From: Oligoflexales bacterium
GTDB lineage: Bacteria; Bdellovibrionota_B; Oligoflexia; Oligoflexales; JAPPIL01
NCBI GenBank assembly: GCA_965215515.1
Contig: OZ244057.1
Coordinates: 2,048,001 to 2,112,000, forward strand
Length of the DNA: 64,000 nt
Reading direction: 5' to 3'
Shown: positions 7,577-64,000 of the stretch, piece after piece
Numbering within the stretch: the stretch's first letter is position 1
Layout of the letters: each line of letters opens with the position of its first letter
Notes under the pieces: generated by a model
Told to the model about the DNA's origin: nothing
Databases searched by the model: none
What the model saw: the letters and a program-made list of their open reading frames with translations, nothing else
Position numbers and translations under genes: made by a program

Positions 7577-7585
7577 TGGTAATCC

Positions 7586-12377: not shown

Positions 12378-12413
12378 AGGAAGGTAGCTGTCCGACAAAA
12401 AATTTTAGTGTGT

Positions 12414-13412: not shown

Positions 13413-13518
13413 AGTTCGTCCAGGAAATACAGCTATGAGTGGGTTGCTAGCACAAATTGTCGAAAACGAGCAATAGCTGAAATGCTGTTGCCCTCGTTGT
13501 ACATCTGCCTTTAGAAGA

Positions 13519-13550
13519 GGGATAAGTTGCCTGATCAGGCAACTTATCCC
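13519..13550. repeat. Perfect 32-bp palindrome (terminator or binding site)
   Basis: GGGATAAGTTGCCTGA|TCAGGCAACTTATCCC. Confidence 0.7.
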
Positions 13551-13619
13551 TACTCATCTTACCTGCCAACTCTAGGAGGAAGCATATCCTATCGAATCTC
13601 TCTGGCTATCTTCCTTTCT

Positions 13620-14519: not shown

Positions 14520-14714
14520 TGTAGTTCTCCTAAAATGATTAATGAAAACAATAACGGAGTAATTGTAAAAAAAAAACGTTCTTGTCAATGAAAATTTGGA
14601 AAATTATTCTTTTACTTATCGCGGCTGCCTGAGTGAGGTAGTCCGCGAGTGCATTTGTTAGCCAAGTACACCAGCCTCGTGTTAAAATATCGAACACAGC
14701 ATGACAGGGTGAAC

Positions 14715-15857: not shown

Positions 15858-15949
15858 TCGTCAGGTGGCTCACAAATTTGCCCATGCATTTGTTAGCCAA
15901 GTACACCAGCCTCGTGTTAAAATATCGAACACAGCATGACAAGGTGAAC

Positions 15950-17068
15950 ATGACTGGGCGACGAAGACGCACAGAGAGGAAGAGACAGCGCCGCAAGGCT
16001 GCCAAAGCCCGTCACTCCCACCCTCATGACAGCGTCTTCAAGACAATCTTCAAGCGTCCCGAACACTGCCGTGCCTTGCTACAGGTCTTGCTTTCCCCTA
16101 GCTTCTACACCATCTTCAATTGGCCCGCGCTGCAGATCACCGAAAGCACCGCAGCGGGAAGGAAGGGACAGGAACGCAGAGCTGACATCGTACTGGAAGT
16201 GCCGTTGTGGCCTTCCAAAGCCCGTGTCATCATCACTATCATCTTGGAGCACAAGAGTTACCGTGACAACGACACCATCCTGCAGATGCTGGGCTATTAC
16301 AACGAGATCGCCCAACAGACAGGCGGCATCATCCTCCCCATCATCGTCACCTGTGGCAAGGACAAGAGAGCAGTTATCCCCTCCGATTACCTTAGTTGGG
16401 CACTGCAAAAGCAGGGTGCACCCGAAGAGTTGAGGCGGCAACTGAAGAAAATTGCCAATTTTGCTTGTCCTTTAGTGAACTTACACGATTTATCCTACCG
16501 TCGCATGCGCCGCGGAGGCGAGGTGGTGAGCTTGGCGTTGTTCGGCATACGTAACTACTGGGATATGGACGAAGAGGTAGTGGTCAAGATTCTCAAGAAG
16601 GCACGCCTGTTGCCACAACAGGAGCGAGAGTTTATGCTCAATGTGTTAATGGACTACTACGAATGTGCCGATAAGGGGTACGACGTGAGGGGGTTTGCGG
16701 AGATTGAACGTAAGCGTTTTCCACACCTGAAGGAGGAAGAAAGACTGATGCCAGAGATGGAATTTGGCCTTGATAGAGCGAGACAAGAGGGCATACGGCA
16801 GGGTATGCGCAAAGGCAAGCGGCAAGGTATCGAGCAGGGTATCGAGCAGGGTATCGAGCAAGGTATCGAGCAAGGTATCGAGCAAGGTATCGAGCAAGGT
16901 ATCGAGCAGGGTATCGAGCAGGGTGTGCGCAAGGGCGTAGAACAAAAGCAGCGGGATGTCGTCGCACGGATGTTGGCGAGAGGTATGCCTGACAAGCAGA
17001 TCTGTGACGTTACACAGGTTAGCACAAAAGAGCTAGCTGACATTAAGCATGAGCTGCAAAAAAGCTGA
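15950..17068 (+). CDS. Rpn/YhgA-family PD-(D/E)XK nuclease (copy 2)
   Basis: Same motifs as copy 1; (GIEQ)x8. Confidence 0.88.
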   Translation: MTGRRRRTERKRQRRKAAKARHSHPHDSVFKTIFKRPEHCRALLQVLLSPSFYTIFNWPALQITESTAAGRKGQERRADIVLEVPLWPSKARVIITIILEHKSYRDNDTILQMLGYYNEIAQQTGGIILPIIVTCGKDKRAVIPSDYLSWALQKQGAPEELRRQLKKIANFACPLVNLHDLSYRRMRRGGEVVSLALFGIRNYWDMDEEVVVKILKKARLLPQQEREFMLNVLMDYYECADKGYDVRGFAEIERKRFPHLKEEERLMPEMEFGLDRARQEGIRQGMRKGKRQGIEQGIEQGIEQGIEQGIEQGIEQGIEQGIEQGVRKGVEQKQRDVVARMLARGMPDKQICDVTQVSTKELADIKHELQKS

Positions 17069-17185
17069 TCGTCAGGTGGCTCACAAATTTGCCCATCAAG
17101 TATGGTACACAGTGACTACTTGGTGATGTTCCAGAGTAAGGAGTTAGCGATATTGCCGAACACATACCGCGTAAGTACCCAGTAA

Positions 17186-17599
17186 GTGATGGCAGGCACT
17201 TCAAGTAAAGCACTTGATGCTGCTAAGATGGCACTGGATTGGGAGGATACATCTCTCATGGCTGGTGTAAATGCATTTATTTCTGGAGGGAAGAAGGTAG
17301 ATACAGAAAAAGAAGCACTGAAAGGAGCAGAAATGTTTAAAAATTTTTTTGCGCATGAGAAGAAGAAGATATTAGGTATTAAGACCGCTGCATCAGGAGC
17401 GGGAGCGGCGGCTGTGATAGCACTTACTCAGGCTGTTTGGGGCCAGGGTGAGAAGGAATTGGGCAGTAGCTGGAATCAGATTTTTAGTACCAGCGGCGAG
17501 TTTGCCGATGCCACCTCTGTCAGTGATCTGCCCGCCATCGTGCACAGCCTTGCCGAAACATTCGGTCATAAAGTAAACACGGCTGCGCTGTCCCTGTAA
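17186..17599 (+). CDS. Hypothetical protein, possibly a 3' gene fragment
   Basis: 137-aa ORF with protein-like composition but no clear SD; follows the Rpn tandem. Confidence 0.35.
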   Translation: MMAGTSSKALDAAKMALDWEDTSLMAGVNAFISGGKKVDTEKEALKGAEMFKNFFAHEKKKILGIKTAASGAGAAAVIALTQAVWGQGEKELGSSWNQIFSTSGEFADATSVSDLPAIVHSLAETFGHKVNTAALSL

Positions 17600-17650
17600 T
17601 CAGGTGACGCGCCCCCAGTCAATATGTCGCGGGAGTGTTTTTTGATAATA

Positions 17651-18376
17651 CTACAAAGCATAACAGAAAATTTCACGGTTGCCCTTCGTGCCACTGATAC
17701 GACAATCGACGGCGGTAAAATCTTGATAGCCATGTTCTTGGAAAAGATTTTTAACTCGCTGCACAGCATAGCCGCGTAGCTTATCATTACGTACAATACC
17801 GCCGCGCGGCACAAGACGACGAGGTAATTCAAACTGCGGTTTAACAAGCACCAAATACTCCGCACGCGCTAGATTGGTAAACACAGCGGGTAAAACTGTC
17901 GTCAGCGAAACAAAACTCACGTCGGCAACCACAAGGTTATTATGCCGATAATGCTGTCCAGCAAAAGTACGGATATCGGTTTTTTCAAAAACTTTTACCC
18001 GCGGGTCACAGCGCAGACTCCACGCCAGTTGATTCGTGCCAACATCAACCGCAGTCACACCTGCCGCACCGTGTTGCAAACAACAATCAACAAAACCACC
18101 TGTCGAAGCCCCAATATCGAGCACATGCCTATCTTTCACCCGCACCGACAGGTCTCGGAAGGCAAGTTCGAGCTTCTTACCGCCACGACTGACATAACGC
18201 TTGCTTGCCTTGACCCGCAGCGTAGCAGAACGTGACACCCGCAGCGCGGGGCTAGTGACCTTGACCTCCTCGACAAAAACCTGCCCCGCCAGAATCTTAG
18301 CATGCACCAACGCCAACGAGGAAATTACGCCCTGCTCCAACAACAACTGGTCAACTCTTATCCGTTCCACACCCAT
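17651..18376 (-). CDS. tlyA: TlyA family rRNA 2'-O-methyltransferase
   Basis: S4 domain RVDQLL, YVSRGGKKL, LDIGASTGGF.DC, VDVGTNQL, DVSFVSL, LVKPQFE, GTKGNRE. Confidence 0.93.
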   Translation of the reverse strand: MGVERIRVDQLLLEQGVISSLALVHAKILAGQVFVEEVKVTSPALRVSRSATLRVKASKRYVSRGGKKLELAFRDLSVRVKDRHVLDIGASTGGFVDCCLQHGAAGVTAVDVGTNQLAWSLRCDPRVKVFEKTDIRTFAGQHYRHNNLVVADVSFVSLTTVLPAVFTNLARAEYLVLVKPQFELPRRLVPRGGIVRNDKLRGYAVQRVKNLFQEHGYQDFTAVDCRISGTKGNREIFCYAL

Positions 18377-18440
18377 GCCCACCTTTTGACAAACTAAAGT
18401 GATCTCGTCAACTGCCGAATGACAGGCGGAGGGATACACC

Positions 18441-19196
18441 GTGAGTAGACAGATTGCTATCTTGAACATTGACGGGCGTGACGTGGCACAACGCCTCGAC
18501 TTGCAAGGTTTTCGTGAGATGGGCTTTCGAGCTGAAGCACTGCACAGCTACGTAGAGGCACAGACATTACTACATGTCGCTGACAAGAAAGAAGCTATTG
18601 AAATTATTGCGGATTTAGTGATGAAAGAGAACATCGATCTCATTATCATCAACCTCGACACCGACGTGGTCGATGCTTTCCACCTCCTACATCACTTTCG
18701 CCGCCATGCCGCGACCGCAAACATACTGCTGGTCGCTACCAGCGTACAGACCGAAGGCATGCCAGAAAACAGAGTGCTAGAAGCTGGAGCTGACCTGTTT
18801 GTACGGCAGCCATTGCCACGCAAAAACTTCGTAAAAAAAATCAGAGCACTGCTCAAACAACAATCACGAGCAGATGAACGGGTAAAAATTGCAGGTCGCA
18901 CCGAATTTGTGTGGGAAAATACCCGCTACCAATGTGGTATCGCCAATATCTCCCGCAGCGGAGTCCTACTGGCAACAAGGATTAATTTTGAAAAAGGTAC
19001 AGTCGTCAGACTGAATATTTTTCTCGCCAAATCTCGTCAACCACTGGTCATTGAAGGCGAATTCGTGCGCGTGGCAACGCAAAAAGATAAAGGTATCGGG
19101 GTGAAATTTATCGCACTCTCCGAACAGCAAGCCACTGCTCTCGACCACTTTATCGCCCAACACTCCGACGAGGCACTGGAGATGATCTACTACTGA
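18441..19196 (+). CDS. Atypical receiver domain plus PilZ domain protein
   Basis: Receiver-like N-half (LEAGADLFV); PilZ motifs RADER and NISRSG, GIGVKF. Confidence 0.75.
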   Translation: MSRQIAILNIDGRDVAQRLDLQGFREMGFRAEALHSYVEAQTLLHVADKKEAIEIIADLVMKENIDLIIINLDTDVVDAFHLLHHFRRHAATANILLVATSVQTEGMPENRVLEAGADLFVRQPLPRKNFVKKIRALLKQQSRADERVKIAGRTEFVWENTRYQCGIANISRSGVLLATRINFEKGTVVRLNIFLAKSRQPLVIEGEFVRVATQKDKGIGVKFIALSEQQATALDHFIAQHSDEALEMIYY

Positions 19197-29944: not shown

Positions 29945-31429
29945 ATGAGAGTTTTTCTTGCTGCATTGTGCGTCGCATCGTTGTCGTTGAGCAGTGTTGC
30001 AGCAGCACGCGGTGGTGCGATCACCAAGTCCAGTAGCGGGGTCGCTGCGTGGCTGAGTAAGATGAAGAAGGTGGTGGTGGCTGGTCAGACCATCGGTATC
30101 GTAGGTGCTCAAGACATAGGCAAGGAGGCTGGTCAGACCATCGGTATCGTAGGTGCTCAAGACATAGGCAAGGAGGCTGGTCAGACCATCGGTATCGTAG
30201 GTGCTCAAGACATAGGCAAGGAGGCTGGTCAGACCATCGGCAAAGTAGCGAAGGCAGGGTTGGCCATGGCTGTGGGGATAATGGTCGCATGTGGTCTGCA
30301 GGGGTGCGATCCCGCGCAGAACCTGGCCAAGGATGTTATCGGGGCTAGAACGGGTAGCGACAATCCTGTTAAGATCGGGTTGATCACCGAGCACGAGTTC
30401 CAGCAAAGCCGTAACGGTGCTATGCTAGCGGCTGAGCAGGCTAACCTCGCGGGCGGGATTGACGGCAGAATGGTAGTCCTTGTGCCCCAAACAATCTACG
30501 GCCGCAACAAATCTGGTGCGGTCATTGCGGCGGAAAATCTTATCAAATACGATGAGGTGATTGCCATCTCGGGGGCTAGTTACTCCACCCTGTCGGAGTT
30601 TATCGACGAGGTCGCTGAACTTGAGGACGTGCCGATGGTGACTATCGGCTCGACCAATCCTCACGTGACCGCTGCCAGCGAATGGGTTTTCTTGGCCGCC
30701 TTCCCCGATAGTTTCCAAGGACGGGTAATGGCACTGTTGGCACGTGAAGAACTTGGTGCGGACACGGCCGCCGTTCTCTACTGGGGTGCGGATGCCTACT
30801 CGAAGGGTCTGGCTGGGTCATTCATTAAAAGCTTCGATGAATTGGGAGGTAGCGTGATAGACTTCGCCTACACCCACGAGCATGGTACAGCCAGTGATGT
30901 TTTCGCGGTGGAACTGGACGCATCTGGCATTATCGACGAAGTGGTCGCGGCGCAACCCGATGTGGTGTTTATCCCCAGCTTTGCTGCTGACGCTGGTACT
31001 GTAGCGAGAGCGTTGCGGGCGGCGGGTGAAGATGCCGCCTTGCTGGGTGCAGATGGCTGGGGATCGGGAGGTGATCTAGTCGAGATTGCGGGTGCGGCTG
31101 CCGAGGGTGCGCTCCATTCCGATCATTTTACCCCCGAAGCTTCTCCACAATTCACCGCGGCCTACACCAGCGCGTATGGGATTGCTCCCGACGGTCTTGC
31201 CGCACTCGGCTACGATTCGGTTATGATCATCATTCAGGCCGCACAGCGGGCGGCGGCGGGTGGCGAGCTTACGCGCACAGCGCTGCGTGATGAGATAGAG
31301 GCTACGGATGACTACAGGGGAGCGACACATATCATCGGATATGACGAAAATCGTCATCCCGTGAAAGATGCGGTGATCTTTACCATTCGAGATGGAGAGA
31401 GGGTGTTTTTCGAAACCTTTAGCCCGTAG
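29945..31429 (+). CDS. LivK-like (type 1) ABC substrate-binding protein with N-terminal repeats, paralog 1
   Basis: VKIG, NLAGGIDGR, F.DSFQG, DAYSKGLA, GADGW, ALGYDS; SD GGGGAGG. Confidence 0.85.
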   Translation: MRVFLAALCVASLSLSSVAAARGGAITKSSSGVAAWLSKMKKVVVAGQTIGIVGAQDIGKEAGQTIGIVGAQDIGKEAGQTIGIVGAQDIGKEAGQTIGKVAKAGLAMAVGIMVACGLQGCDPAQNLAKDVIGARTGSDNPVKIGLITEHEFQQSRNGAMLAAEQANLAGGIDGRMVVLVPQTIYGRNKSGAVIAAENLIKYDEVIAISGASYSTLSEFIDEVAELEDVPMVTIGSTNPHVTAASEWVFLAAFPDSFQGRVMALLAREELGADTAAVLYWGADAYSKGLAGSFIKSFDELGGSVIDFAYTHEHGTASDVFAVELDASGIIDEVVAAQPDVVFIPSFAADAGTVARALRAAGEDAALLGADGWGSGGDLVEIAGAAAEGALHSDHFTPEASPQFTAAYTSAYGIAPDGLAALGYDSVMIIIQAAQRAAAGGELTRTALRDEIEATDDYRGATHIIGYDENRHPVKDAVIFTIRDGERVFFETFSP

Positions 31430-31447
31430 CGCGTGAACATGTGACAT

Positions 31448-31484
31448 CATCTCCTCTCTGCATCGTAGGTAGGGAGGAGAGATG
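31448..31484 (+). terminator. Hairpin after SBP paralog 1
   Basis: CTCCTCTCTGC...GTAGGGAGGAG; analogous hairpin at 33363-33402 after paralog 2. Confidence 0.4.
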
Positions 31485-31576
31485 GTAGGGTTTCTCGCCG
31501 CGAGTGCGACGAAGTGCGTTCTTCACAGCGCACACGGGGTGGGTTGTTGTTCAATCAGAATGAGGAGGAGTGTGTC

Positions 31577-33346
31577 ATGAGAGTTTTTCTTGTTGCGCTG
31601 TGCGTCGCATCGTTGTCGTTGAGCAGTGTTGCAGCAGCACGCGGTGGTGCGATCACCAAGTCCAGTAGCGGGGTCGCTGCGTGGCTGAGTAAGATGAAGA
31701 AGGTGGTGGTGGCTGGTCAGACCATCGGTATCGTAGGTGCTCAAGACATCGGCATGGCTGGTGCTCAAGACATCGGCATGGCTGGTGCTCAAGACATCGG
31801 CATGGCTGGTGCTCAAGACATAGGCAAGGAGGCTGGTCAGACCATCGGCATGGCTGGTGCTCAAGACATCGGCATGGCTGGTGCTCAAGACATAGGCATG
31901 GCTGGTGCTCAAGACATAGGCAAGGAGGCTGGTCAGACCATCGGTATCGTAGGTGCTCAAGACATAGGCAAGGAGGCTGGTCAGACCATCGGCATGGCTG
32001 GTGCTCAAGACATCGGCATGGCTGGTGCTCAAGACATAGGCATGGCTGGTGCTCAAGACATAGGCAAGGAGGCTGGTCAGACCATCGGCATGGCTGGTGC
32101 TCAAGACATCGGCATGGCTGGTGCTCAAGACATCGGCATGGCTGGTCAGACCATCGGCAAAGCAGCGAAGGCAGGGTTGGCCATGGCTGTGGGGATAATG
32201 GTCGCATGTGGTCTGCAGGGGTGCGATCCCGCGCAGAACCTGGCCAAGGATGTTATCGAGGCTAGGACGGATAGCGACAACCCTGTTAAGATCGGGGTGA
32301 TTAACGAGCACGAGTTCCCGCAGGGTTGGAAGGGTGCTATGTTAGCGGCTGAGCAGGCTAACCGCGCGGGCGGGATTGATGGCCGACTGATAGTCCTTGT
32401 CCCCCAAACGATCTACGGTCGCAGCAAATCTGGTGCGGTCATTGCGGCAGAGAATCTTATCGAATACGACGAGGTGATTGCCATCTCGGGGGCTAGTTAC
32501 TCCACCCTGTCGGAGTTTATCGACGAGGTCGTTGAACTTGAGGACGTGCCAATGGTGACTATCGGCTCGACCAATCCTCACGTGACCGCTGCCAGCGAAT
32601 GGGTTTTCTTGGCCGCCTTCCCCGATAGTTTTCAAGCTCGGGTGATGGCAACGCTGGCTCGTGAAGAGCTTGGTGCAGATACGGCCGCCGTCCTCTACTG
32701 GGGTGCGGATGCCTACTCGAAGGGTCTAGCTGGGTTGTTCAGTGAAAGCTTCGGCAAATCGGGAGGTAGTGTGGTGGCGAACTTCGCCTACACCTACGAG
32801 GGAAACACAGCCAGTTTCGCGACAGAACTAAACGCATCTGGCATTATCGACGAAGTGGTCGCGGCACAGCCCGATGTGGTGTTTCTCCCTGGCTTTGAGG
32901 CTGATTCAGGTACTGTAGCGAAAGCGTTGCGGGCAGCGGGTGAAGATGCTGCCTTGCTGGGTGCGGATGGCTGGGGATCAGCGAGAGATCTGGTCGAGAT
33001 TGCGGGCGAGGCGGTCGAGGGTGCGCTCCATTCCGACCACTTTGCCCCTGAAGCATCTCCGCAATTCACCGCAGCCTACACCAGCGCGTATGGGATTGCC
33101 CCCGACGGTCTTGCCGCACTCGGCTACGATTCGGTTATGATCATCATTCAGGCCGCACAGCGGGCAGCGGCGGGTGGCGAGCTTACGCGCACAGCGCTGC
33201 GTGATGAGATAGAGGCTACGGATGACTACAGAGGAGCGACACATATCATCGGATATGACGAAAATCGTCATCCCGTGAAAGATGCGGTGATCTTTATCAT
33301 CCAAGACGGAGAGAGGGTGTTTTTCGAGACCGCCACCGTCCATTAG
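31577..33346 (+). CDS. LivK-like ABC substrate-binding protein with expanded N-terminal repeats, paralog 2
   Basis: Close tandem paralog of 29945-31429; SD GAGGAG. Confidence 0.85.
   Translation: MRVFLVALCVASLSLSSVAAARGGAITKSSSGVAAWLSKMKKVVVAGQTIGIVGAQDIGMAGAQDIGMAGAQDIGMAGAQDIGKEAGQTIGMAGAQDIGMAGAQDIGMAGAQDIGKEAGQTIGIVGAQDIGKEAGQTIGMAGAQDIGMAGAQDIGMAGAQDIGKEAGQTIGMAGAQDIGMAGAQDIGMAGQTIGKAAKAGLAMAVGIMVACGLQGCDPAQNLAKDVIEARTDSDNPVKIGVINEHEFPQGWKGAMLAAEQANRAGGIDGRLIVLVPQTIYGRSKSGAVIAAENLIEYDEVIAISGASYSTLSEFIDEVVELEDVPMVTIGSTNPHVTAASEWVFLAAFPDSFQARVMATLAREELGADTAAVLYWGADAYSKGLAGLFSESFGKSGGSVVANFAYTYEGNTASFATELNASGIIDEVVAAQPDVVFLPGFEADSGTVAKALRAAGEDAALLGADGWGSARDLVEIAGEAVEGALHSDHFAPEASPQFTAAYTSAYGIAPDGLAALGYDSVMIIIQAAQRAAAGGELTRTALRDEIEATDDYRGATHIIGYDENRHPVKDAVIFIIQDGERVFFETATVH
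31711..32160 (+). repeat. In-frame 24-bp modular tandem repeat (GMAGAQDI / GKEAGQTI / GIVGAQDI)
   Basis: About 19 octapeptide modules, versus 7 at ~30080-30243. Confidence 0.95.
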
Positions 33347-38915: not shown

Positions 38916-39099
38916 AGGCAGGACAGTGACTGTGTGAGACTTTGTCGCTTTCTTCGACAATTCGCGCTGGCAACTCGTTGCTGTGCGAGTGTTTGTGTGT
39001 TGCTTTCTTGCTTCATGGATATGATAGAGGGGCGTATGCACAGGGGTTGTTATCGCTGTGTGTATGTGCCATAGTGGTGGTACTGAGTTGGGGGAGATA

Positions 39100-39945
39100 A
39101 TGTCGGAGGGAGGCGATAGGGTGAGCGAGGGCGATAAGGGTGGTCGCGTGCCTACTGTGGCTGAGATAACGCAGCGTCTCGATCGTGTTGCTGCGCAGCA
39201 GGAGAAGACCGAGGCGCAGGTGGCTGAGAATTCTGTTGCACTGAAGGAGCTGATCGAGCAAAGCAAGCAGAATGATAAAAAAACCAATGAGAAGATCGAC
39301 AAGCTGGCTGAAAAAACCGACAGACAGATCGCAAAGACCAATGAGAAGATCGACAAGCTGGCTGAAAAAACCGACAGACAGATCGCAAAGACCAATGAGA
39401 AGATCGACAAGCTGGCCGAAAAGACCAACGAAAAAATCGATAAGCTGGCCGAAAAGACCGACAGGCAAATCGCAAAGACAGAAAAGCTGGTGGGGAGATT
39501 GGCGAAGCAGATCGGGGGTGTGGACAAAATTTTCGGTGATATGGCGGAATACGTGTCTTTCACCAACTTGGAGCGGCTACTCCACGAGCAGGCTGGCATT
39601 GTCATCAAGGGTGTGACCAAGCGTTGGAGAATGACTCACGAGGGGCGTAGTTATGAGTTCGACTTGATAGCACTTGGCACGGGTGTGGTGGTGGCGATTG
39701 AGGTCAAGACCACCCTACGTAGCGAGAACATCGACAGATTTTCCTCTTCTATGCTGGAGTTTCCTGCGATTTTTCCTGAATATAGGCGCAGCGACATCTA
39801 CGGCGGCTTTGCCTACATGAAGGCTCAAGATGGTGCAGAGGACAGAGCGCACAAGCATGGCATACTGACTATCCGTGCCATCGGCGGGTCGGCTTCGCAG
39901 TTAGTCGGCTTCGACGCGGATGCTCTGCGGAACTTCAAACACTGA
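39100..39945 (+). CDS. Coiled-coil plus PD-(D/E)XK nuclease-like protein (DUF3782-like)
   Basis: Repeats KTNEKIDKLAE(KTDRQIA); EFDLIA...VAIEVKTTL; IYGGFAY; homologous to 58376-58933 and 59035-59622. Confidence 0.7.
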   Translation: MSEGGDRVSEGDKGGRVPTVAEITQRLDRVAAQQEKTEAQVAENSVALKELIEQSKQNDKKTNEKIDKLAEKTDRQIAKTNEKIDKLAEKTDRQIAKTNEKIDKLAEKTNEKIDKLAEKTDRQIAKTEKLVGRLAKQIGGVDKIFGDMAEYVSFTNLERLLHEQAGIVIKGVTKRWRMTHEGRSYEFDLIALGTGVVVAIEVKTTLRSENIDRFSSSMLEFPAIFPEYRRSDIYGGFAYMKAQDGAEDRAHKHGILTIRAIGGSASQLVGFDADALRNFKH

Positions 39946-43652: not shown

Positions 43653-43679
43653 ACGTGCACCCCAAAGATCGCCTGCCCC

Positions 43680-43997
43680 TTTCTCGCTTCGCTTCGCTCC
43701 GCCAGGCTTTTTTTTCGCTTTCTCGCTCCGCTTCTCATGTCCGATTGCAAGGAGCGAGCTAGCAAGCGAGCGTTACTAAAAGCCGCTTTGCTTGCTAGCT
43801 CCGCTTCGCTCCGCCAGGCCTGTTTGCCGCTTGCTAGCTCCGCTTCGCTCCGCCAGGCCTGTTTGCCGCTTGCTAGCTCCGCTTCGCTCCGCCAGGCCTG
43901 TTTGCCGCTTGCTAGCTCCGCTTCGCTCCGCCAGGCCTGTTTGCCGCTTGCTAGCTCCGCTTCGCTCCGCCAGGCCTGTTTGCCGCTTGCTAGCTCC
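43680..43997 (-). repeat. Modular 39-bp repeat/palindrome element, intergenic copy
   Basis: 5 x GGAGCTAGCAAGCGGCAAACAGGCCTGGCGGAGCGAAGC, then a palindromic module, then a variant unit. Confidence 0.95.
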
Positions 43998-46900
43998 TCA
44001 GGCAACGCTTGCCCTCCTTCTTCTAAAAATTTTCCAAAAAATACCTGCAATATCATCACTTATCCTAACCACTGCAGGCAAGACCAATACGGTCAATAAC
44101 GCGCCACCGAGAATCCCCCAACCCAATGCCAACGCAATCGGAACGACAAACGGGTCAAGACCCCCAAAACCATACGCGGTCGGTAAAATCCCCGCCGATG
44201 TCGTGATCGTTGTCAAAAAAATCGGACGTAAACGTCGCTGTGCGGCATCTTTGACAGCAGCCACCTTCTCCAAACCACGCCGCCGTGCACTATTGATAAA
44301 ATCAATGAACACAATAGCATTGTTGACCACCACACCAGCTAAGGCAATAATGCCGATCATCGCCAAAAAACTCAGCGTCATGCCATGCACATAGAAAGCA
44401 AAAACAGTTGCGGCAATACCCAACGGAATGGTAGTTGCGATGATAAACGGCTGGTATAAATTCTTAAACAACAATGTTAGAAGGAAGATAATGCCAAACA
44501 AGGCAAAAATAAAAGTTACCCGCAACGATGCCATGCTCTCTTTAGTATCGCTATCCTCACCGCCAAAATGAAAAGTGAGGGAAGGATGCTGTGCTGCCAT
44601 CGCGGCAACCTTCTCGCGCATAAAACTATTCACTACGGCGGAAGTGGTCACCTTGTTGTCAACTTCCGCGGTAACCGTCACCTGTCGTTGATTGTCTTCA
44701 TGCTCATAAACCGATACCCCACTGACAGTATCCCAACTTGCAGTCTTCCGTAACGGAATAAGCTGACCACGACGATTAGGAATCTCAATATCAGCTAACG
44801 CCCGTGCTCCTTGCTGTGCTTCTTGCTGCAATGTGACACGTAAATCTATTTCTTCATCGAGACCACGAATAGTCGTTGCCACAATACCTTCAAACGCCGC
44901 ACGCACCGCCAAGCCAATGTCCTGCAACGACAACAGCGCAGCCGCAGCTGCCTCTTGCTTGACTCGCACACGCATCTCCTCTTTGCCAGTTACATGACTG
45001 TTCTCGACATCAGTCACACCTTCAACGGCACGCAACTGTTCCTCTAACTGCTGCACCGCAGGCAAAATATTCACATACTCATCGCCACGCACACCGATAC
45101 TGACCGCCTTGCCCACAGGCGGCCCGCCCGCCACCTGCCTGAAACTTACCACCTCCAAACCTTCTGGCTGCACAACATTACTGCGTACATCCTCAACGAT
45201 AGTGGCCGTGTCACGTTCACGCGTCAAAGCATCCGTTAAATACACCATAATCTCCGCATACTCAGCCCCACGTTTCATCCCACGCGGATTATGCATGCCT
45301 TGCCGACCAATAATACTAATAAAATCTTCCATCTCACTATCAGGCAAAGAAGCAATATACTCCTCATAAGGGCGCACCAAACGCTCGGTCTCGTCTAAGG
45401 ATACCCCTGTCTCCGCTTGCAGACTTATCGAAAACATATAGACACCCCCAGGCGGAAACAACACAAAACCGACCTTCTCCTTCGCCAAATAAACCATGCC
45501 GCTGAACAAAACAAGTGCCGCTAGAATCACTAAATAACGCAATTTCAACACACCGTTAAGCACATATAGATAAGGTTGCTCTACCAGCGGTCGCCAAATT
45601 TTGGTATCGAAAAACGATCTGCCACTGCGCAACTTGCTAGTTCTTACCCAACTAGCAACATGATGAGGCAAAATGAAAAAACATTCCCATAAACTAACCA
45701 ATAATGAGATAACTACCGCCACAGGAATAAAGTAAATAAATTTGCCAAAAATTCCCGTCATAAACATCATCGGGGCGAAAACAATAACCGTCGTCATCAC
45801 CGACGCAGTCACAGGAGCCCAGATGCGTTGTGTGCCTTTAATGGCAGCCTCTGCAGGGCTGAGCCCGTCTTCGATAAAACGCTGCGCATTCTCCGTGATA
45901 ACGATGGCATCATCGACCAACATGCCGACAACAATAATCAAGCCCATCATCGAGACAAGATTTAAACTTATACTGCCAAAATGAAAAATAGCCACCACCG
46001 CTAGGAACGCAAACGGAATACCAAACACCGTCACCAAAGCGATGGGCAAAGGTAAGATTAAGGCAAGAATAACCAACACTAACATCAAGCCAATAACCAT
46101 ATTATTGGTCAGAACTTGCAAACGTCGCTTAACATAATAAGAAACATCGTTAATAAAACCTACCTCGATAGCAGGATTGATCTTATGTTTCTGCTCGTCA
46201 ATCGTTTGCCGCACCTTGTCGACTAGAGTAATCGCATCACGATGCTCCTTGCGCAACACCCTGAGGTTCAATGACCGTGAGCTGTTAGTTCTATAGCGAT
46301 ACTTTTCTTTGGCAAAAGTCATAGTCACGGTGCAAACATCTTTTATCCTGATACTGCGACCCAACGAATTGGCACGGATGACGGTATCTTCAACATCTTC
46401 AACACCCTGATACTCGCCGATGGTGCGAATAATTATCTCCTTGCTGCTGTCTGTTGCTGCCGAAGACACCCCACCAGGGATATTGATGTTGTTTTTTTGA
46501 ATTGCATTTATCAGCTCTGGCAAAGAGAGGCGAAATTTTTTCAGCTTGTCAACATGTGCCTCTATTCTTATCTCCAGGTCGCGCATACCGCTGAAGTTAA
46601 CTTGCGCTACCTCGCTAATTTTTTCTAACTCCCGCTCCAAAAACTTTGCTGCCTTGCGCAACTCTGTCTCCGCAACATCACCGCTTAACGTCACATCGAT
46701 GACGGGACGACGCTTGCTTTCCATCAACGTAACTTTGGGGTCTTCTGCTCCGTCAGGCAAAGTCGTGAGGTTGCTAACGACATCATCTATGTCTATCTTT
46801 GCCTCGTTGGCAGTCGCTTGGTCAGGGTCGAGCTGCAAAGCAATGACACTCTGCCCTTCTACCGAATACGAGGTCATTTTCTTGATACCATCAACCTCCC

Positions 46901-49892: not shown

Positions 49893-52292
49893 ATGAATAA
49901 AACTCAGCTTAGGTGGTTGTTATTTTTTGTATTTATTGCTGCGGCGGCAGCTTTCTTTGTATTTGATGTGCAGCAGTTTTTAAGTTTTGCTTATTTGAAG
50001 GCACGGCATCTTGAGTTTAGAGAGTATTATGTCCAGCACACGTTGTTAACTGCGTTGTTTTATTTTTGTGTTTATGTGTTGGTCACGTCTTTGTCGGTGC
50101 CTGGGGCGTTGGTGATGACGATTGCGGGCGGGGCGATTTTTGGGGTGGTGTATGGCACGATAATTGTGTCGTTTGCTTCGACGATAGGGGCAACGCTGGC
50201 GTTTTTGGCGGCGCGCTTTATTTTGCGGGATTTTGTGCAGAATAAATTCGCGACGAAGTTGCGGACTATCAACGCTGGGATGGAGAAAAACGGTGTATTT
50301 TATTTGTTTACTTTGCGTTTAGTGCCTATCTTTCCGTTTTTTATGATTAATATGGTGATGGGCTTGACAAGAATTAAAACATGGCATTTTTTCTTTGTCA
50401 GTCAGGTCGCGATGTTGCTCGGCACGGTGTTGTATGTTAATGCAGGAGCACAGTTGAGCAAGTTGCAGTCGCCCGCGGATATTTTATCGTGGCAGTTGTT
50501 GTTGTCGTTCGCGCTTCTGGGTATTTTTCCTCTGCTCGCGAAAAAAATAGTTGACGTTGTGAAAGCGAGGCGTGTGTATCGTGGTTTTACGCGCCCGCGT
50601 CATTATGATTACAATCTAGTCGTCATTGGGGCGGGAGCGGCAGGCTTGGTCAGTGCTTATATCGGAGCGACGGTGAAGGCGAAGACGCTGTTGATTGAGA
50701 GGCACAAGATGGGAGGTGATTGTCTCAATACGGGGTGTGTACCGAGCAAGGCACTGCTAAAGTCGGCACAAATTGCCGCTTTACAGCACAAGGCACGACG
50801 GTATGGGTTTGCTAAAATCGAGTTGTCGTATCTCTTCAGTGAGGTGATGGAGCGGGTGCAGAGGGTGATTGCGAAGGTTGAGCCGCACGATTCAGTAGCA
50901 AGATACAGTGCCCTAGGAGTTGAGTGTCGGCAAGGTGAAGCAAGAATTATCTCGCCGTATGAGGTGCAGGTAAAGGAGCGAGAAAGCAAAGCTGCTTTTA
51001 GTAACGCTCGCTTGCTAGCTCGCTCCTCACACTCAGATGTGGAGAGCGAAGCGGAGCGAGAAAGCGGCAAAAAAGCCTGGCGGAGCGAAGCGGAGCGAGA
51101 AAGCGGCAAAAAAGCCTGGCGGAGCGAAGCGGAGCGAGAAAGCGGCAAAAAAGCCTGGCGGAGCGAAGCGGAGCGAGAAAGCGGCAAAAAAGCCTGGCGG
51201 AGCGAAGCGGAGCGAGTGGTCACGGCGCGCAACATCATTATTGCTAGCGGTGCAACTCCGTTTGTGCCACCGTTGGCGGGGTTGGAGCAGGTTGACTACT
51301 ACACTGCCGACACGATTTGGAGTTTGCGTGAGAGACCGTCGTGTATGTTGGTGCTTGGTGGCGGGCCGATCGGTTGTGAGTTAGCGCAAGCTTTTACGCG
51401 GCTCAGCGTAAAGGTGGTGCAATTGGAGCAGGGAACACGGCTGTTGCCGCGTGAAGATGTGGAAGTGTCTGATTTTATGATGCAGGTGTTTCGTGACGAA
51501 GGTATTGAGGTGCTAACGGAGCATCGGGCGTTAAGTTTTGGCAAAGAGGAGGGCGGGAGTTTTGTTGTTTGTCGGCATAAGGAGCAGGAGAAAAAGATAA
51601 AGTTTGATGTGGTGTTGCTAGCGTTGGGACGCAGAGCGACGGTAACTGGTTTTTGTGGCGAGGCTATGCAGTTAGATTTAACCGAGCGGGGTACGTTGCA
51701 GGTTAATGATTATTTGCAGACCAATTATCCTAACATTTATGCTTGTGGTGATGTTGTTGGGCCGTATCAGTTCACGCACATGGCTGCGCATCAAGCGTGG
51801 TATTGTGCCGTCAATGCTTTGTTCTCGCCTGTGAGTTTCAAAGTCAACTACAGGGTTGTTCCTTGGTGCACCTTTACTGATCCAGAGGTGGCACATGTGG
51901 GGCTGAGTGTTGCTGAGGCAGAGCGACGTGGTATTGCTTATGAGGTGACGATGTATGGTCTGGATGATCTTGACCGTGCCATTGCTGATAGCGACGATCG
52001 TGGTTTTGTCAAGGTATTGACTGCACCGAAGAGGGACAGGGTGCTCGGTGCAACGATTGTTGGCGCACGTGCGGGTGAGTTGATTACTGAGTTCGTCAGT
52101 GCGATGCAGCATGGCATTGGTCTGAACAAAATCCTCGCCACGATTCATATCTATCCGACCTTTGCCGAAGCCAACAAGTACGCGGCAGGCAACTGGAAGA
52201 AGACGCATGCTTCTGCCCGTGTGCTTGCTTATCTTGAGAAGTTGCATAGCTTGCGGCGGGGGGCAAACGAAAGGCGAGCACATGGAAGATAA
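49893..52292 (+). CDS. VTT/TVP38 domain fused to FAD-dependent pyridine nucleotide-disulfide oxidoreductase (MerA/Lpd-like), carrying a 78-aa repeat insertion
   Basis: LFTLRLVPIFPFF VTT motif; GAGAAG, GGDCLNTGCVPSK, GGGPIG, HIYPTFAE. Confidence 0.9.
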   Translation: MNKTQLRWLLFFVFIAAAAAFFVFDVQQFLSFAYLKARHLEFREYYVQHTLLTALFYFCVYVLVTSLSVPGALVMTIAGGAIFGVVYGTIIVSFASTIGATLAFLAARFILRDFVQNKFATKLRTINAGMEKNGVFYLFTLRLVPIFPFFMINMVMGLTRIKTWHFFFVSQVAMLLGTVLYVNAGAQLSKLQSPADILSWQLLLSFALLGIFPLLAKKIVDVVKARRVYRGFTRPRHYDYNLVVIGAGAAGLVSAYIGATVKAKTLLIERHKMGGDCLNTGCVPSKALLKSAQIAALQHKARRYGFAKIELSYLFSEVMERVQRVIAKVEPHDSVARYSALGVECRQGEARIISPYEVQVKERESKAAFSNARLLARSSHSDVESEAERESGKKAWRSEAERESGKKAWRSEAERESGKKAWRSEAERESGKKAWRSEAERVVTARNIIIASGATPFVPPLAGLEQVDYYTADTIWSLRERPSCMLVLGGGPIGCELAQAFTRLSVKVVQLEQGTRLLPREDVEVSDFMMQVFRDEGIEVLTEHRALSFGKEEGGSFVVCRHKEQEKKIKFDVVLLALGRRATVTGFCGEAMQLDLTERGTLQVNDYLQTNYPNIYACGDVVGPYQFTHMAAHQAWYCAVNALFSPVSFKVNYRVVPWCTFTDPEVAHVGLSVAEAERRGIAYEVTMYGLDDLDRAIADSDDRGFVKVLTAPKRDRVLGATIVGARAGELITEFVSAMQHGIGLNKILATIHIYPTFAEANKYAAGNWKKTHASARVLAYLEKLHSLRRGANERRAHGR
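50975..51216 (+). repeat. Modular 39-bp repeat/palindrome element, in-frame intragenic copy
   Basis: 78-bp palindromic module plus 4 x GGAGCGAGAAAGCGGCAAAAAAGCCTGGCGGAGCGAAGC, bounded by GGAGCGAG. Confidence 0.95.
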
Positions 52293-53214
52293 TTGGCGCA
52301 CGTCACCTAATGCCCACAATGATTTTATGGCCGCTTTGCTGGAGACAGCCGACGATTGTCGCGGCCTGCTAGCCTTAGCCGTCGCCAAAAACAAAGTGGA
52401 CGACGTACGAGAGAAGAGGGTGACGCGTTTGCCAGCTGATCATCCTGATTTTAGGCAGGTAGTACGCCATCTCGATGCGGTGCTTGGGATGAACGCAGGC
52501 GAGGCCACTGGTGGCGAGGAAGCTTATGAACATATCTACCTGCTCGAATTCAAGAGTAGTCTGAGCAAACACTCGCTGTTGCGGCAGTTGCTGGGTTATA
52601 TCTTGATTTTACTGCGTTTTTGTACATTAGTGACCCCTATCGTCATCTACACAGGTAAACGTCCGCTGCCCGCAGTTCGTAAACGGATACGTCCCCATGC
52701 CTGGTTACAAACACTCATCGCCAATCGGTGTGGTGTTAGCCTCACCTGTGTCGTAGTGAACATAGCTGAGGTCAAACGCACCACCCTGCTGCGCTATGCT
52801 CCCACAATTGCAGCGGGACTGTACCTCGCCAAACATATCTACCACTTGACTGAAGCACACATTGCCCAGTTCTTTCAGCTGGCCAACACTATGCCCAAGG
52901 TTTGGCGAGAGAAGATGGTTGAAAAGGGTTGCGTATATATCATAAAATGCGTGGAGGGCTACGATTGGCGGCGTTTGGAACGCATCGAACGCGAGGTAGT
53001 ACCAGAGAGGAGGCGTGTAGTGGCACGGGTAGCTTATAGCCGCGAGGCGGCCGTAGCCGAGGGTAAAGCCGAGGGTAAAGCCGAGGGTAGAGCCGAGGGA
53101 CTGGCAGAAGTTGCTCAGCGCATGCTTGTGGAAGGCATGGATATCGAGATCATCTGCCGCACAACTGGTCTCACGCGCAGAGAGCTGACACGACTCAAGA
53201 AAAAACGCGCCTAG
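52282..53214 (+). CDS. Divergent Rpn-like PD-(D/E)XK protein
   Basis: AHNDF, HLDAVL, LLEFKS, PIVIYTGK, (EGKA)n tail, RMLVEGMDIEIICRTTGLT end. Confidence 0.75.
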   Translation: MEDNWRTSPNAHNDFMAALLETADDCRGLLALAVAKNKVDDVREKRVTRLPADHPDFRQVVRHLDAVLGMNAGEATGGEEAYEHIYLLEFKSSLSKHSLLRQLLGYILILLRFCTLVTPIVIYTGKRPLPAVRKRIRPHAWLQTLIANRCGVSLTCVVVNIAEVKRTTLLRYAPTIAAGLYLAKHIYHLTEAHIAQFFQLANTMPKVWREKMVEKGCVYIIKCVEGYDWRRLERIEREVVPERRRVVARVAYSREAAVAEGKAEGKAEGRAEGLAEVAQRMLVEGMDIEIICRTTGLTRRELTRLKKKRA

Positions 53215-58375: not shown

Positions 58376-58933
58376 TTAGGGATGGAAGTCGCGCAGCTTG
58401 AACCCTTGCGGGAAGGAGACGAGTTCTTTGCTGGTTTCGGTTGGATGGATGAGCAGTAGTCCTTGTTGTTGTGCGTAGGCTTGCACTGCAGCGCTGGCAC
58501 TGAGAAAACCGATTGCGCCGTAAATTTTCTTGCCCTTAAAGGTCGGTGCAAGCTCAGTGAATATTTTGAGTTTTCCCGCGACGAAGTTTTTGACATCCGT
58601 CTCCTTCAGAGTAGACTTGGCTTCGATGACGACCACCACGCCATCACCGTCCGCGATGCCATCGATTTCCCACTCCTTGCCGTTATAATCTTTGCGAAGG
58701 TTGGTGTACAGAGTGTGCACCTCGATGCCATCGGCAGAGTTGAGGACGGCAATGGACTCGCCGACCGTCATGGCCTCACCGAGATCACCCCACTTGTTGC
58801 TCAATCCACCGATATTCTTCGCCAGCTTGTCAACTCTCGCATCCGTCTGCTTGAACCTAATCGCGACCTCACGGAATAGTGCCCAAACATCCTCAAGAGT
58901 CGGCCTTTTCTTCTTCTTACTCTTGCCTGCCAT
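58376..58933 (-). CDS. Small PD-(D/E)XK nuclease-like protein (DUF3782-like), array unit 1
   Basis: IGGLSNKWGDLGE, EIDGIA...VIEAKSTL, KIYGAIG. Confidence 0.72.
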   Translation of the reverse strand: MAGKSKKKKRPTLEDVWALFREVAIRFKQTDARVDKLAKNIGGLSNKWGDLGEAMTVGESIAVLNSADGIEVHTLYTNLRKDYNGKEWEIDGIADGDGVVVVIEAKSTLKETDVKNFVAGKLKIFTELAPTFKGKKIYGAIGFLSASAAVQAYAQQQGLLLIHPTETSKELVSFPQGFKLRDFHP

Positions 58934-59034
58934 GCGCTGTCTATCCTCACCAAAATGCCCGCATCGCCAGTCTAACACAACGCAGCACTGTGTGCTGCAC
59001 AAAAAGCATCCATCGCTACCTCCATCACAAACTT

Positions 59035-59622
59035 TCAGGGATGGAAGTCGCGCAGCTTGAAACCTTGCGGGAAGGAGACGAGTTCTTTGCTGGTTTCGGT
59101 TGGATGGATGAGCAGTAGTCCTTGTTGTTGTGCGTAGGCTTGTACTGCAGCGCTGGCACTGAGAAAACCGATTGCGCCGTAAATTTTCTTGTTCTCAAAG
59201 GATGGCTCAAGCTCAGTGAATATTTTGAGTTTTCCCGCGACGAAGTTTTTGACATCCGTCTCCTTCAGTGTAGCCTTGGCTTCGATGACGATCACCAGTT
59301 CTTTGCCAATGGCAATTCCGTCTATTTCCCACTCCTTGCCCTTGTAGTTAGTGATGATGTTTGAATGCAGGCTGTAGACCTCGACACCGTCGATGGTGTT
59401 GAAGACAGCAATGGACTCGCCGACCGTCATGGCCTCACCGAGATCACCCCACTTGTTGCTCAATCCACCGATATTCTTTGACAGCTTGTCAATTCTCACG
59501 TCACTTGCCTTAGCATTGACGGTCAGTGCCTCGATATCGGCTCTAGCTGCCCTCAGGCCAGCCACAACTTCACGTAACGATTCCAGCAATTCTCCGAAAG
59601 CTAGGATCTCTTTGCCTGCCAT
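59035..59622 (-). CDS. Small PD-(D/E)XK nuclease-like protein (DUF3782-like), array unit 2
   Basis: C-terminus identical to unit 1, different N-terminus. Confidence 0.72.
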   Translation of the reverse strand: MAGKEILAFGELLESLREVVAGLRAARADIEALTVNAKASDVRIDKLSKNIGGLSNKWGDLGEAMTVGESIAVFNTIDGVEVYSLHSNIITNYKGKEWEIDGIAIGKELVIVIEAKATLKETDVKNFVAGKLKIFTELEPSFENKKIYGAIGFLSASAAVQAYAQQQGLLLIHPTETSKELVSFPQGFKLRDFHP

Positions 59623-60988: not shown

Positions 60989-61428
60989 TCAATCTGCCCC
61001 TCGCCGCAAGCTATGCAACTTCTCAAGATAAGCAAGCACACGGGCAGGAGCATGCGTCTTCTTCCAGTTGCCTGCCGCGTACTTGTTGGCTTCGGCAAAG
61101 GTCGGATAGATATGAATCGTGGCGAGGATTTTGTTCAGACCAATGCCATGCTGCATCGCACTGACGAACTCAGTAATCAACTCACCAGCACGTGCGCCAA
61201 CAATCGTTGCACCGAACACCCTGTCCCTCTTCGGTGCAGTCAATACTTTGACAAAACCACGATCGTCGCTATCAGCAATGGCACGGTCAAGATCATCCAG
61301 ACCATAAAGCAATACCACGTCGCTCTGCCTCAGCAACACTCAGCCCCACATGTGCCACCTCTGGGTCAGTAAACGTACACCAAGGGACAACCCTGTAGTT
61401 GACTTTGAAACTCACAGGCGAAAACAAA
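60989..61428 (-). pseudogene. Inverted partial copy of the oxidoreductase 3' end (~51818-52265)
   Basis: Near-identical on opposite strand; 14-bp frameshifting deletion; no 5' part. Confidence 0.92.
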
Positions 61429-61641: not shown

Positions 61642-62961
61642 CTATGTTTCTTTGCCACGTAGCTTCTCGATCAAACACACCGTCTCCACGGCAACAGTGA
61701 TGGTGCTGAGTAGCAAGCGTAAGATATAGGGTGCGTCGTCGCTATAGTTGTTGGGGTCGTCGAGCAGGTCGGTTTTGGGGTCAATTTTGCGATAGTAGCG
61801 TTCTACTATCCACTTCACTGGTGCATAGCCGCTGACTTGATATTGCCAAGTTTCAGCGGGAATGCCTGTGACAGTGATGTCATCATTGTATTTGATACTT
61901 TGTTGATCTTTAGCTATCTTCATTTTAGTTACCAATAGGCTTGCAGGTGGTATGCGCTCTAAACGTGTCTCCTGGCCACGATACAAAATCTTCACCCCCG
62001 CGAGCTGTGGTTGCTGCTCATAACCGATATGCAACTCGTTGAACATAGTGCAGTAGTAGAGATGTTTTTTAATAAAGGGACGATAGCTGGACAGTTTTAT
62101 TTTATCAGAAGTAAAAGTTGCTTCTTTGCCTTTAATCAGCGATTGTTTGAGGCTACGACTCCATTTGATCTTTTTTTCGTTAAGCTCAATATGTTGATCG
62201 ATATTTTTTACATTCAGCTGCTCACCTGCTAGTCGGTCGCGCTCACAGTTGTAAACACCGATCATCTCTGCCATGTTTGCCGCTACCATGCTGTGATCAT
62301 AATTGTAAGCCCAGCCATCCCTATTTGTCTTCACACCACAGCTATACAGTGCAAAAATTCCCCCACCCCGCTTCTTATCGCCGAGCACGGGCAACTGCTC
62401 ATAGTCACTATCGCGTTGATCGAGCCAATCACCATGCTTGTCAGGTGTAATTGTTTGCCAGTTGATGTTTGTGATTGAACTGTAAGCGGATATTTTTTGT
62501 AGTTTCTGTTCGCGACTGAGATAGTCACCGATATCATGGTAGTAAATTTCTGCCTCTTTAGTTAGTCTTCTGGGGCCTTTGACTAAAAAGCTGATCGCTA
62601 CTGGTGTTCTGCTGTTTTGTCCGAATATTTTTCCACCCTCCTTGCGCGCTAACTCTCCTTTAGTACGTTGGTTACCGCGCAGATGAAAAGAATAGATGGC
62701 ATCGAATTCTTCAACTAAGCATCGCCTTAGCCCTTGTGTGCTACGTTCATCAAGCATAGAGGCATTATGGACAAAGCCTATAATACCGCCGCTGTCTCCA
62801 ATTCTATCGCTCGCCCAGCGAATGGCTTTAATGTAGGAGTCGAGCAAAGCGCGCTTAAGTGTGGCATTTAACTTAGCCATGTAGCTCTCTTGCACTCGCT
62901 TTCGTAAATGTGGATACACCGTGTTTTTGTTAGCATCGTTTTCTGATTTTTGCCCCACTGA
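61642..62961 (-). pseudogene. 3' fragment of type ISP restriction-modification enzyme
   Basis: SVGQKSEND, DSYIKAIRWASDRI, LRGNQRT.GE..RKEGGKIFG, YHDIGDYLSREQKL, GVKTNRD.W, SYRPF, LHIGYE. Confidence 0.85.
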
Positions 62962-64000
62962 GGAAGATTTTATTAGTATTATTGGTCGGCAAGGCATGCA
63001 TAATCCGCGTGGGATGAAACGTGGGGCTGAGTATGCGGAGATTATGGTGTATTTAACGGATGCTTTGACGCGTGAACGTGACACGGCCACTATCGTTGAG
63101 GATGTACGCAGTAATGTTGTGCAGCCAGAAGGTTTGGAGGTGGTAAGTTTCAGGCAGGTGGCGGGCGGGCCGCCTGTGGGCAAGGCGGTCAGTATCGGTG
63201 TGCGTGGCGATGAGTATGTGAATATTTTGCCTGCGGTGCAGCAGTTAGAGGAACAGTTGCGTGCCGTTGAAGGTGTGACTGATGTCGAGAACAGTCATGT
63301 AACTGGCAAAGAGGAGATGCGTGTGCGAGTCAAGCAAGAGGCAGCTGCGGCTGCGCTGTTGTCGTTGCAGGACATTGGCTTGGCGGTGCGTGCGGCGTTT
63401 GAAGGTATTGTGGCAACGACTATTCGTGGTCTCGATGAAGAAATAGATTTACGTGTCACATTGCAGCAAGAAGCACAGCAAGGAGCACAGGCGTTAGCTG
63501 ATATTGAGATTCCTAATCGTCGTGGTCAGCTTATTCCGTTACGGAAGACTGCAAGTTGGGATACTGTCAGTGGGGTATCGGTTTATGAGCATGAAGACAA
63601 TCAACGACAGGTGACGGTTACCGCGGAAGTTGACAACAAGGTGACCACTTCCGCCGTAGTGAATAGTTTTATGCGCGAGAAGGTTGCCGCGATGGCAGCA
63701 CAGCATCCTTCCCTCACTTTTCATTTTGGCGGTGAGGATAGCGATACTAAAGAGAGCATGGCATCGTTGCGGGTAACTTTTATTTTTGCCTTGTTTGGCA
63801 TTATCTTCCTTCTAACATTGTTGTTTAAGAATTTATACCAGCCGTTTATCATCGCAACTACCATTCCGTTGGGTATTGCCGCAACTGTTTTTGCTTTCTA
63901 TGTGCATGGCATGACGCTGAGTTTTTTGGCGATGATCGGCATTATTGCCTTAGCTGGTGTGGTGGTCAACAATGCTATTGTGTTCATTGATTTTATCAAT
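62962..64000 (+). pseudogene. Inverted near-identical copy of RND gene internal segment (44292-45330), runs off window
   Basis: Exact reverse complement wherever spot-checked except A at 63489; lacks the 5' half of the gene. Confidence 0.9.

Follow-up and report, generated by a model that had tools for sequence, protein, structure and literature searches.

The window, the stretch of 64,000 nucleotides analysed here, belongs to the 2.18-Mb, one-contig genome of an Oligoflexales bacterium (G000) and contains a flavin disulfide reductase gene interrupted by short repeats (Table 1). Two GGAGCGAG octamers lie 234 bp apart at 50975 and 51209, with further copies at 51053, 51092, 51131 and 51170. 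The insert consists of a 78-bp module followed by four identical 39-bp units, and TRF reported 4.4 copies at 100% identity (51044-51216). The redox motifs of the enzyme (GGDCLNTGC and the C-terminal H-x-Y-P) are unbroken; orthologues outside the genus have open frames of 718-727 aa. The initial annotation described 234 bp inserted in frame between two octamers with all catalytic motifs intact, and both the sequence and the lengths of the homologues agree with this. In a comparison of 88 homologous loci, which includes one mis-parsed row, the segment spanning the affected turn has 39 residues in 54 loci, 43-48 residues (4-9 extra) in 29 loci, 53 residues in two congeners (three loci, one genome being counted twice) and 117 residues in G000. 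The 78 additional residues account exactly for the difference between 117 and the canonical 39, so removal of the insert restores the canonical length. As previously noted, the 39-bp units have no stop in any of the six frames; the whole insert is open in only two of the six, the host frame among them. The hairpin ascribed to the insert was recovered for the 78-bp module, which folds with about -20 kcal/mol as DNA, but the 39-bp unit reaches only -3.0. The apparent 6 x 39 modularity turned out to be coincidental, since array periods across the family range from 18 to 110 bp; some arrays incorporate host DNA.

Table 1. Components of the reductase insert, its host gene and the second composite copy (window positions)
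Feature	Position	Strand	Description
Host gene	49893..52292	+	799 aa, DedA/VTT membrane domain fused to class I pyridine nucleotide-disulfide oxidoreductase (flavin disulfide reductase)
Composite module, 78 bp	50975..51052	+	Start of plus-strand (B) core, inverted A-type core forming hairpin, spacer
Inverted A-type core (GAGCTAGCAAGCGAG)	51007..51021	-	Subfamily dominating G001 intergenic DNA
Four identical 39-bp B-type units	51053..51208	+	Core, A-run, arm, GCGAAGC loop motif; translated (ERESGKKAWRSEA)4
Right end	51209..51219	+	GCGAGTGG (51212-51219), usual 3' end of simple family copies
Second composite copy	43674..43997	-	5.3 x 39-bp units and 78-bp module, between RND transporter and O-methyltransferase genes

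An AlphaFold model based on a 64-sequence alignment gave pLDDT values of at least 90 for 438 of the 563 residues of the modelled enzyme and placed the insert, with low confidence, between strands 127-132 and 210-220; a single-sequence run gave no confident fold (pLDDT 36). The insert sits in a beta-turn, and in the model the enzyme folds around a disordered loop. Sequencing data were available as three runs from three samples of one study, possibly including the source. Unitigs enter each end of the insert by 30 nt, 1 nt short of the bridging threshold, the unit unitig has 2.2-3 times the depth of the flanks in the three runs, and no empty-site joint occurs among the unitigs listed for these runs. 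An assembly artefact is therefore unlikely as the source of the insert, while the number of units is fixed by the assembly only.

Apart from the two copies in Table 1, the 78-bp module was found in an AddA-like helicase gene and in nuoCD of G000. At the right end of the reductase insert both congeners read R-T-V-T where G000 reads R-V-V-T. Because the right octamer continues into GCGAGTGG, the usual end of a B unit, and threonine is replaced by valine relative to the congeners, we infer that this octamer belongs to the element and does not duplicate a host target; the insertion probably overwrote a few host bases there.

Parts of two genes of the window recur nearby as inverted copies, one at 60995-61428 (94.6% to 51818-52265, where the reductase gene has its 3' end) and one at 62962-64000 (99.9% to 44292-45330 within the RND gene); these may represent long duplications next to inserted cassettes. 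Rpn-like genes whose tails consist of 12-bp tandem repeats are located at 52282-53214, 14841-17068 and 61642-62958; the one adjoining the reductase gene has no Pfam match. Paralogous genes at 29981-33346, 39064-39945 and 58376-59622 contain internal 24-, 33-, 48- and 54-bp repeats unrelated to the core family.

Distribution and architecture of the repeat family

A census covered three congeneric Oligoflexales genomes (G000 and its congeners G001 and G002) and 124 relatives, with reversed sequences as control. The core GAGCKAGVAAGCGRS occurs 83 times in G000 and 1650 and 431 times in the two congeners; the 124 other genomes contain 0-3 cores each, like the reversed control. Of the congeners, with main contigs of 2.84 and 2.95 Mb, 1.2 Mb each was examined. 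G003, a member of the same family outside the genus, is represented by an assembly in 280 contigs that is 86% complete. Relatives of the insert are present at about 40 places in G000, one of them the second composite copy in the window. The window has no Rfam match, a plasmid blastn search with the insert gave no meaningful match, and 35 metagenome and 18 viral single matches lack flanking family motifs, except for one viral contig. This contig has the loop and core adjacent (401-425), followed by CAAA, in a single copy, and is the sole such match outside the genus and the ColE1-type sites. The repeat has so far been found in one genus only. A full-text literature search, chiefly of open-access papers from 1995 onwards, found no account of the family, nor of any primosome-site-like repeat scattered over a chromosome. 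The analysis supports the earlier proposal of a non-autonomous element family, which is multi-copy and has no Rfam match, and the tandem amplification proposed with it is seen in arrays throughout the family.

The B unit of about 42 bp is composed of the core, an A-run and a hairpin with a constant 11-nt loop, GAGCGNAGCGA, and variable stems. In the A type, which prevails in the intergenic mosaics of G001, the core continues as GAGCG(T/A)TACAAAAAGC. Stems around GAGCGNAGCGA covary: among 63 distinct arm pairs the mean number of paired bases is 2.38 against 1.21, a value reached in 0 of 2000 shuffles, although relatedness among copies makes this an overstatement. Simple copies are polar, with the core at one end and the hairpin, about 25 nt further on, at the other, and have no terminal inverted repeats. 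The core itself is very well conserved, while the bases preceding it vary and do not form a conserved GTAG tetramer; GTGG or GTAG is frequent directly before the core in G002. A replication-strand bias of the copies was not seen (p=0.07 and 0.14; GC skew is weak). The gyrB-gyrA spacer of G000 is filled by an array of 13 x 27 bp (993359-993705), and in a repeated intergenic element of G002 (e.g. near 43052) a perfect 7-bp hairpin (TTCG loop) splits the core in some near-identical copies and is missing from others.

The three congeners allow the history of the reductase locus to be followed. In G002 the turn holds a single B unit, which is an older copy of 42 bp and is read in another frame; G001 has a degenerate insert of the same length, 14 codons, and AAGGAGCG at the same codons. 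The turn is empty in G003 and in the other genera, the orthologues in which an empty site was sought. An older G002 copy lies at the same place in three of the four loci with the 78-bp module (reductase, AddA-like helicase and 43674 spacer, not nuoCD). As the chance of a G002 copy in a random 120-bp coding window is about 0.004, in most cases the module was written over an older copy or added to one. The reductase locus is most simply explained by an old copy remodelled into the module and four units; independent insertion at a native GGAGCG by microhomology is a possible alternative.

Among known repeats the Rickettsia palindromic elements (RPE) come closest in description: they are lineage-restricted short repeats that lie in frame in unrelated metabolic genes and add a peptide, and their units of about 150 bp are described as encoding a conserved peptide (PMC10969869). 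The present family, for which no cognate enzyme was found, differs in its polar units of 25-45 bp, which are read in several frames and both orientations, form tandem arrays and mosaics and replace host bases; it is by description and length that the two are set apart. Pneumococcal BOX elements and enterobacterial BIMEs are modular and, like our family, form hairpins, can expand in tandem and occur as nested copies in intergenic DNA. Unlike these, the family has co-oriented cores and frequent in-frame coding copies and has neither a GTAG tag nor a RAYT. With REP and REPIN sequences it shares the covarying hairpin but not the repeat-flanked RAYT/TnpA-REP or the GTAG tetramer, and MITEs differ by their terminal inverted repeats and constant target-site duplication. 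The family works like a repeat of the RPE or BOX type and appears to be neither a MITE nor a REP. Yeast mitochondrial GC clusters, although organellar and unrelated in sequence, are also short GC-rich hairpin repeats without an enzyme that occur in frame in genes and are thought to move by conversion-like copying.

The repeat might serve the host as a signal, for instance by binding a protein, acting as a terminator or restraining mobile genes, with ordinary gene conversion to spread it and selection to maintain it. The strong conservation of the core would suit this, as would the positions of the G001 clusters, 374 of 400 being intergenic with convergent gene ends over-represented, and the many copies that disrupt Rpn, integrase and FtsK-like genes. 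However, copy number differs 20-fold among the congeners, most positions are specific to one lineage, housekeeping enzymes contain arrays of up to 130 residues, and the broken mobile genes are explained by relaxed selection. We regard a host signal as quite unlikely.

Reading frame and translation

Fifty-eight clusters, in which both flanks match one protein, were scored for their effect on the reading frame. In single-copy genes 25 of 26 are open, and the exception looks Rpn-like by eye; of the 32 in multicopy genes, 23 carry a frameshift or a stop (Fisher's p = 3e-9 with the exceptional gene reassigned, a value overstated by paralogous copies that share events). The coding copies set against the intergenic ones comprised 49 clusters in orthologue-supported genes of the three genomes, 35 sense, 13 antisense and 1 mixed, a few of which are chance one-mismatch matches. 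All 12 tandem arrays in such genes have periods divisible by 3. The host genes include those for a DapD-like transferase, ComEC, the AddA-like helicase and NuoCD. Landing is therefore frame-blind, and selection retains only in-frame copies in single-copy genes.

Because the frame is kept in single-copy genes and lost in multicopy ones, the in-frame copies are survivors, which argues for their translation. The 78 residues of the reductase are most likely translated as a disordered loop, and the tolerance of the element in protein loops claimed by the initial annotation accords with the in-frame copies in single-copy genes and with the model that folds around the insert. Removal or bypass of the insert at the RNA or protein level might be considered, given its large size and its hairpin. 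Since frameshifting copies are confined to dispensable multicopy genes, such removal is not needed; moreover, the turn tolerates 4-9 extra residues in other homologues, and we consider this explanation extremely improbable.

At least four related conjugative elements with VirB4/TraC, FtsK-like, Replic_Relax and large serine recombinase genes are present in G000 (2835-19003, 125366-142494, 607360-620442 and 1630831-1644447), and their recombinase genes have been struck by the repeat at several independent positions.

Junctions and mode of spread

Filled and empty alleles with flanks of up to 99-100% identity were found among paralogous ICE genes, Rpn genes and intergenic repeats. Junctions were chosen by eye from 41 + 142 comparisons; most of these represent exchanges of modules within older elements and were left out of the count. 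In ten events the element starts with (T/G/A)GGAGC and replaces 4-7 host bases, most commonly six (G002 43052, G001 283308, G001 1389775 and G000 4170). Seven bases are replaced at G001 1012915, G001 1693316 and G002 2888139, five in a recombinase gene, and six and four in an FtsK-like gene. Three other junctions are apparent clean insertions, and two of these show a TGG(A) repeat of 3-4 bp. In G001, A-type patches take the place of at least 17 bases, one of them with a net loss of 9. Near-identical pairs of paralogues show that the left end is fixed and the right end variable. Some copies have arms complementary to neighbouring host bases, and at G002 2850167 the loop is inverted between unbroken arms, which we take as a template-switch signature.

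These junctions do not support a reading of the octamer as a duplicated target. It forms the end of the repeat itself, and most insertions delete host bases and do not duplicate them. A classical MITE, mobilised by a DDE transposase and flanked by GGAGCGAG as its 8-bp target duplication, would account for the octamer on both sides of the reductase insert, for the canonical length after removal and for AAGGAGCG at the same codons in G001. Simple copies, however, have no terminal inverted repeats, there is no constant duplication, host bases are lost at most well-resolved sites, and the octamer recurs in every unit. The paralogue junctions thus largely refute this explanation, which we regard as very improbable. 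As for the targeting of the element to its own motif, the older copy at three of the four module loci agrees with the earlier proposal, whereas 37 empty sites showed no excess likeness to the element when compared with their own flanks (p=0.18), which rules out a general resemblance of targets to the element.

In copies made by target-primed retroposition one end is typically fixed and the other variable, and a little of the target is deleted. The junctions would therefore also suit retroposition of a small structured RNA by target-primed reverse transcription. This is improbable, because neither an Rfam match nor a master gene was seen, and no reverse transcriptase (PF00078) was found in five genomes including G000-G003 (controls were positive in 3 of 14).

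Another candidate is a REP/BIME-like family whose spread was due to a single-strand transposase of the HUH (RAYT) type, now lost or diverged beyond recognition. The short hairpin with a covarying stem, the absence of a constant target duplication, the mosaic intergenic clusters in G001 and the frequent GTGG/GTAG before the core in G002 could be explained in this way. Profile searches (PF01797, NF047646) in G000-G003, genomes that are 86-94% complete, gave no RAYT; the only Y1 match was an IS605-type TnpA in G000, which adjoins a broken tnpB and has no core nearby, and G001 and G002 have no Y1 enzyme. Nor was there a core within 1.5 kb of TnpB loci. A stand-alone GIY-YIG nuclease was not found, each genome having one frame of 570-631 aa read as UvrC, so that no partner of the suggested HUH/RAYT or GIY-YIG kind was found with the copies in the genomes searched. 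The cores in G001 clusters are almost all co-oriented (2 of 400 clusters are mixed), whereas REP pairs are inverted. The tetramer shows no conservation, and polymorphism among near-identical copies points to recent activity in the absence of the enzyme. A lost or diverged transposase therefore seems unlikely to us. Y2 transposases (IS91/ISCR) were found in 0 of 4 genomes, the control genomes being likewise without a match, and each genome has one tyrosine recombinase and no extra one. An ICE was rejected as donor: across the ICE copies no native core occupies a shared position, and the core is present only as lesions. The ICE relaxase also occurs in 9 genomes outside the genus.

The pattern of junctions fits template-switch copying at a break better than cut-and-paste transposition. 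The fixed end and the modal 6-bp loss could equally reflect a dedicated nuclease, of which the selected protein families searched gave no example. We favour, with a probability of about 0.5, a genus-restricted, parasitic and enzyme-less mini-repeat that would be copied by host repair synthesis through break-repair template switching and would then expand by slippage. A break or gap would arise at a largely arbitrary site, the expanded Rpn nucleases being a candidate source. The free 3' end, to judge from the junctions, would switch template to an existing copy and copy about 25-70 nt, with one boundary fixed at (T/G)GGAGC; rejoining would usually cost about 6 host bases and sometimes proceed via fold-back on the hairpin of the element. 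Tandem expansion and overwriting by newer modules, a pattern seen directly in the copies, would follow, and frame-blind landing with selection for in-frame copies in single-copy genes would complete the sequence. The preference for the element as template might come from a folded single-strand signal like the n'-primosome assembly site of ColE1, putatively bound by PriA.

Rpn genes number 18, 63, 9 and 6 in the four genomes of the family (6 in G003) and 1 in 27 other genomes, which leaves the rest of the order nearly without them. In G001 a core lies within 400 bp of 34 of the 36 genes of the three largest Rpn-like families, compared with 205 of 815 single-copy genes; in G000 this is true of 0 of 14 Rpn-family genes. 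G003 has six Rpn genes yet no core, and the number of Rpn genes does not follow that of the repeats. RpnA is described as making non-specific breaks with 3'-OH ends that polymerase can extend, and its authors propose primer-template switching and name PriA as a candidate partner (PMC5350276). Loss of repair genes specific to the genus was considered and dismissed: MutS, PriA and RecJ are present, and the apparent absences of SbcD (not found in 5 genomes, two of them outside the genus) and RecG extend beyond it. No RecG scored above the cut-off in 31 genomes of the order, all matches being Mfd-sized or partial frames (controls passed in 8 of 14). RecG is described as limiting PriA-driven re-replication in E. 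coli (PMC5055574). The Rpn expansion and the apparent absence of RecG may have provided permissive conditions, which would not explain the restriction to one genus.

Filled and empty alleles are seldom available side by side, one reason why the entry of enzyme-less repeats such as RPE and BOX into genes is still poorly understood. Here the near-identical paralogues give junctions resolved to the base and the three congeners a history, and the ColE1 match offers a cheap biochemical test.

Resemblance to the ColE1 primosome assembly site

The comparison with ColE1 and its statistics are post hoc. About 150-175 nt past its origin ColE1 has, on one strand, GAGCGTAGCGA, six bases, GAGCGAGGAAGCGG and an A-run. 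It shares with the family GAGCGNAGCGA, with the same free loop position, and the core motif GAGCGAGGAAGCGG, and the block with both motifs is common to at least 5000 plasmids. We take the bases bearing the motifs to be ssiA (n'-pas, the PriA primosome assembly site). The family matrix scores 23.8 bits on the ColE1 site, within the range of the family and reached by 0 of 200 nulls; a k-mer test for a ColE1-type site gave 2 of 300, and the joint two-motif pattern has a per-position chance of about 2e-12. This pattern occurs seven times in the viral collection, five of these being ColE1-type sites with the same loop position variable. Spacing differs, the loop and core being 6 nt apart in ColE1 and mostly overlapping in the family.

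The site ssiA is described as a PriA site directly downstream of the ColE1 origin (PMC3167613, PMC8246471, PMC5935869). ColE1/pBR322 ssiA resembles the family in having GAGCGNAGCGA and GAGCGAGGAAGCGG with an A-run on one strand. It differs in being a single site of about 65 bp beside a plasmid origin, in which the loop precedes the core, and in its upstream arm, which has no counterpart in the family. The family motifs, in contrast, are scattered over the chromosome in hundreds of copies, and in single units the core comes first and the loop second. In phiX174 the two short motifs occur once each, at 2315 and 2357, one in the PriA hairpin and the other directly after it according to the description in bioRxiv 10.64898/2026.07.25.740675; the site is not the top one by matrix or k-mer test. 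G4 and M13 have neither motif. The top match in 50 of the 99 kb of the F plasmid, at 48067 between a resolvase gene and repE, is ColE1-like, but its 13.4 bits lie under two matches in a 596-kb background.

A possible source of the likeness to ColE1 is convergence on GAGC-rich hairpin motifs. A bolder reading, tentative and to our mind doubtful, would make the family a 'selfish primosome assembly site', i.e. a plasmid-type PriA loading signal turned chromosomal parasite that, without a transposase, would prime or capture repair synthesis on single strands and write loops into dozens of housekeeping proteins, in an order apparently without RecG. If PriA did recognise the element, it would be a mobile DNA parasitising replication restart; if not, it would still be a well-resolved case of repeat-driven growth of protein loops. 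PriA does not explain the genus specificity of the repeat, since it is single-copy in all 31 genomes searched. Its open frames measure 667-677 aa in the family (G000 1341195-1342754), whereas about 760-850 aa is usual elsewhere in the order.
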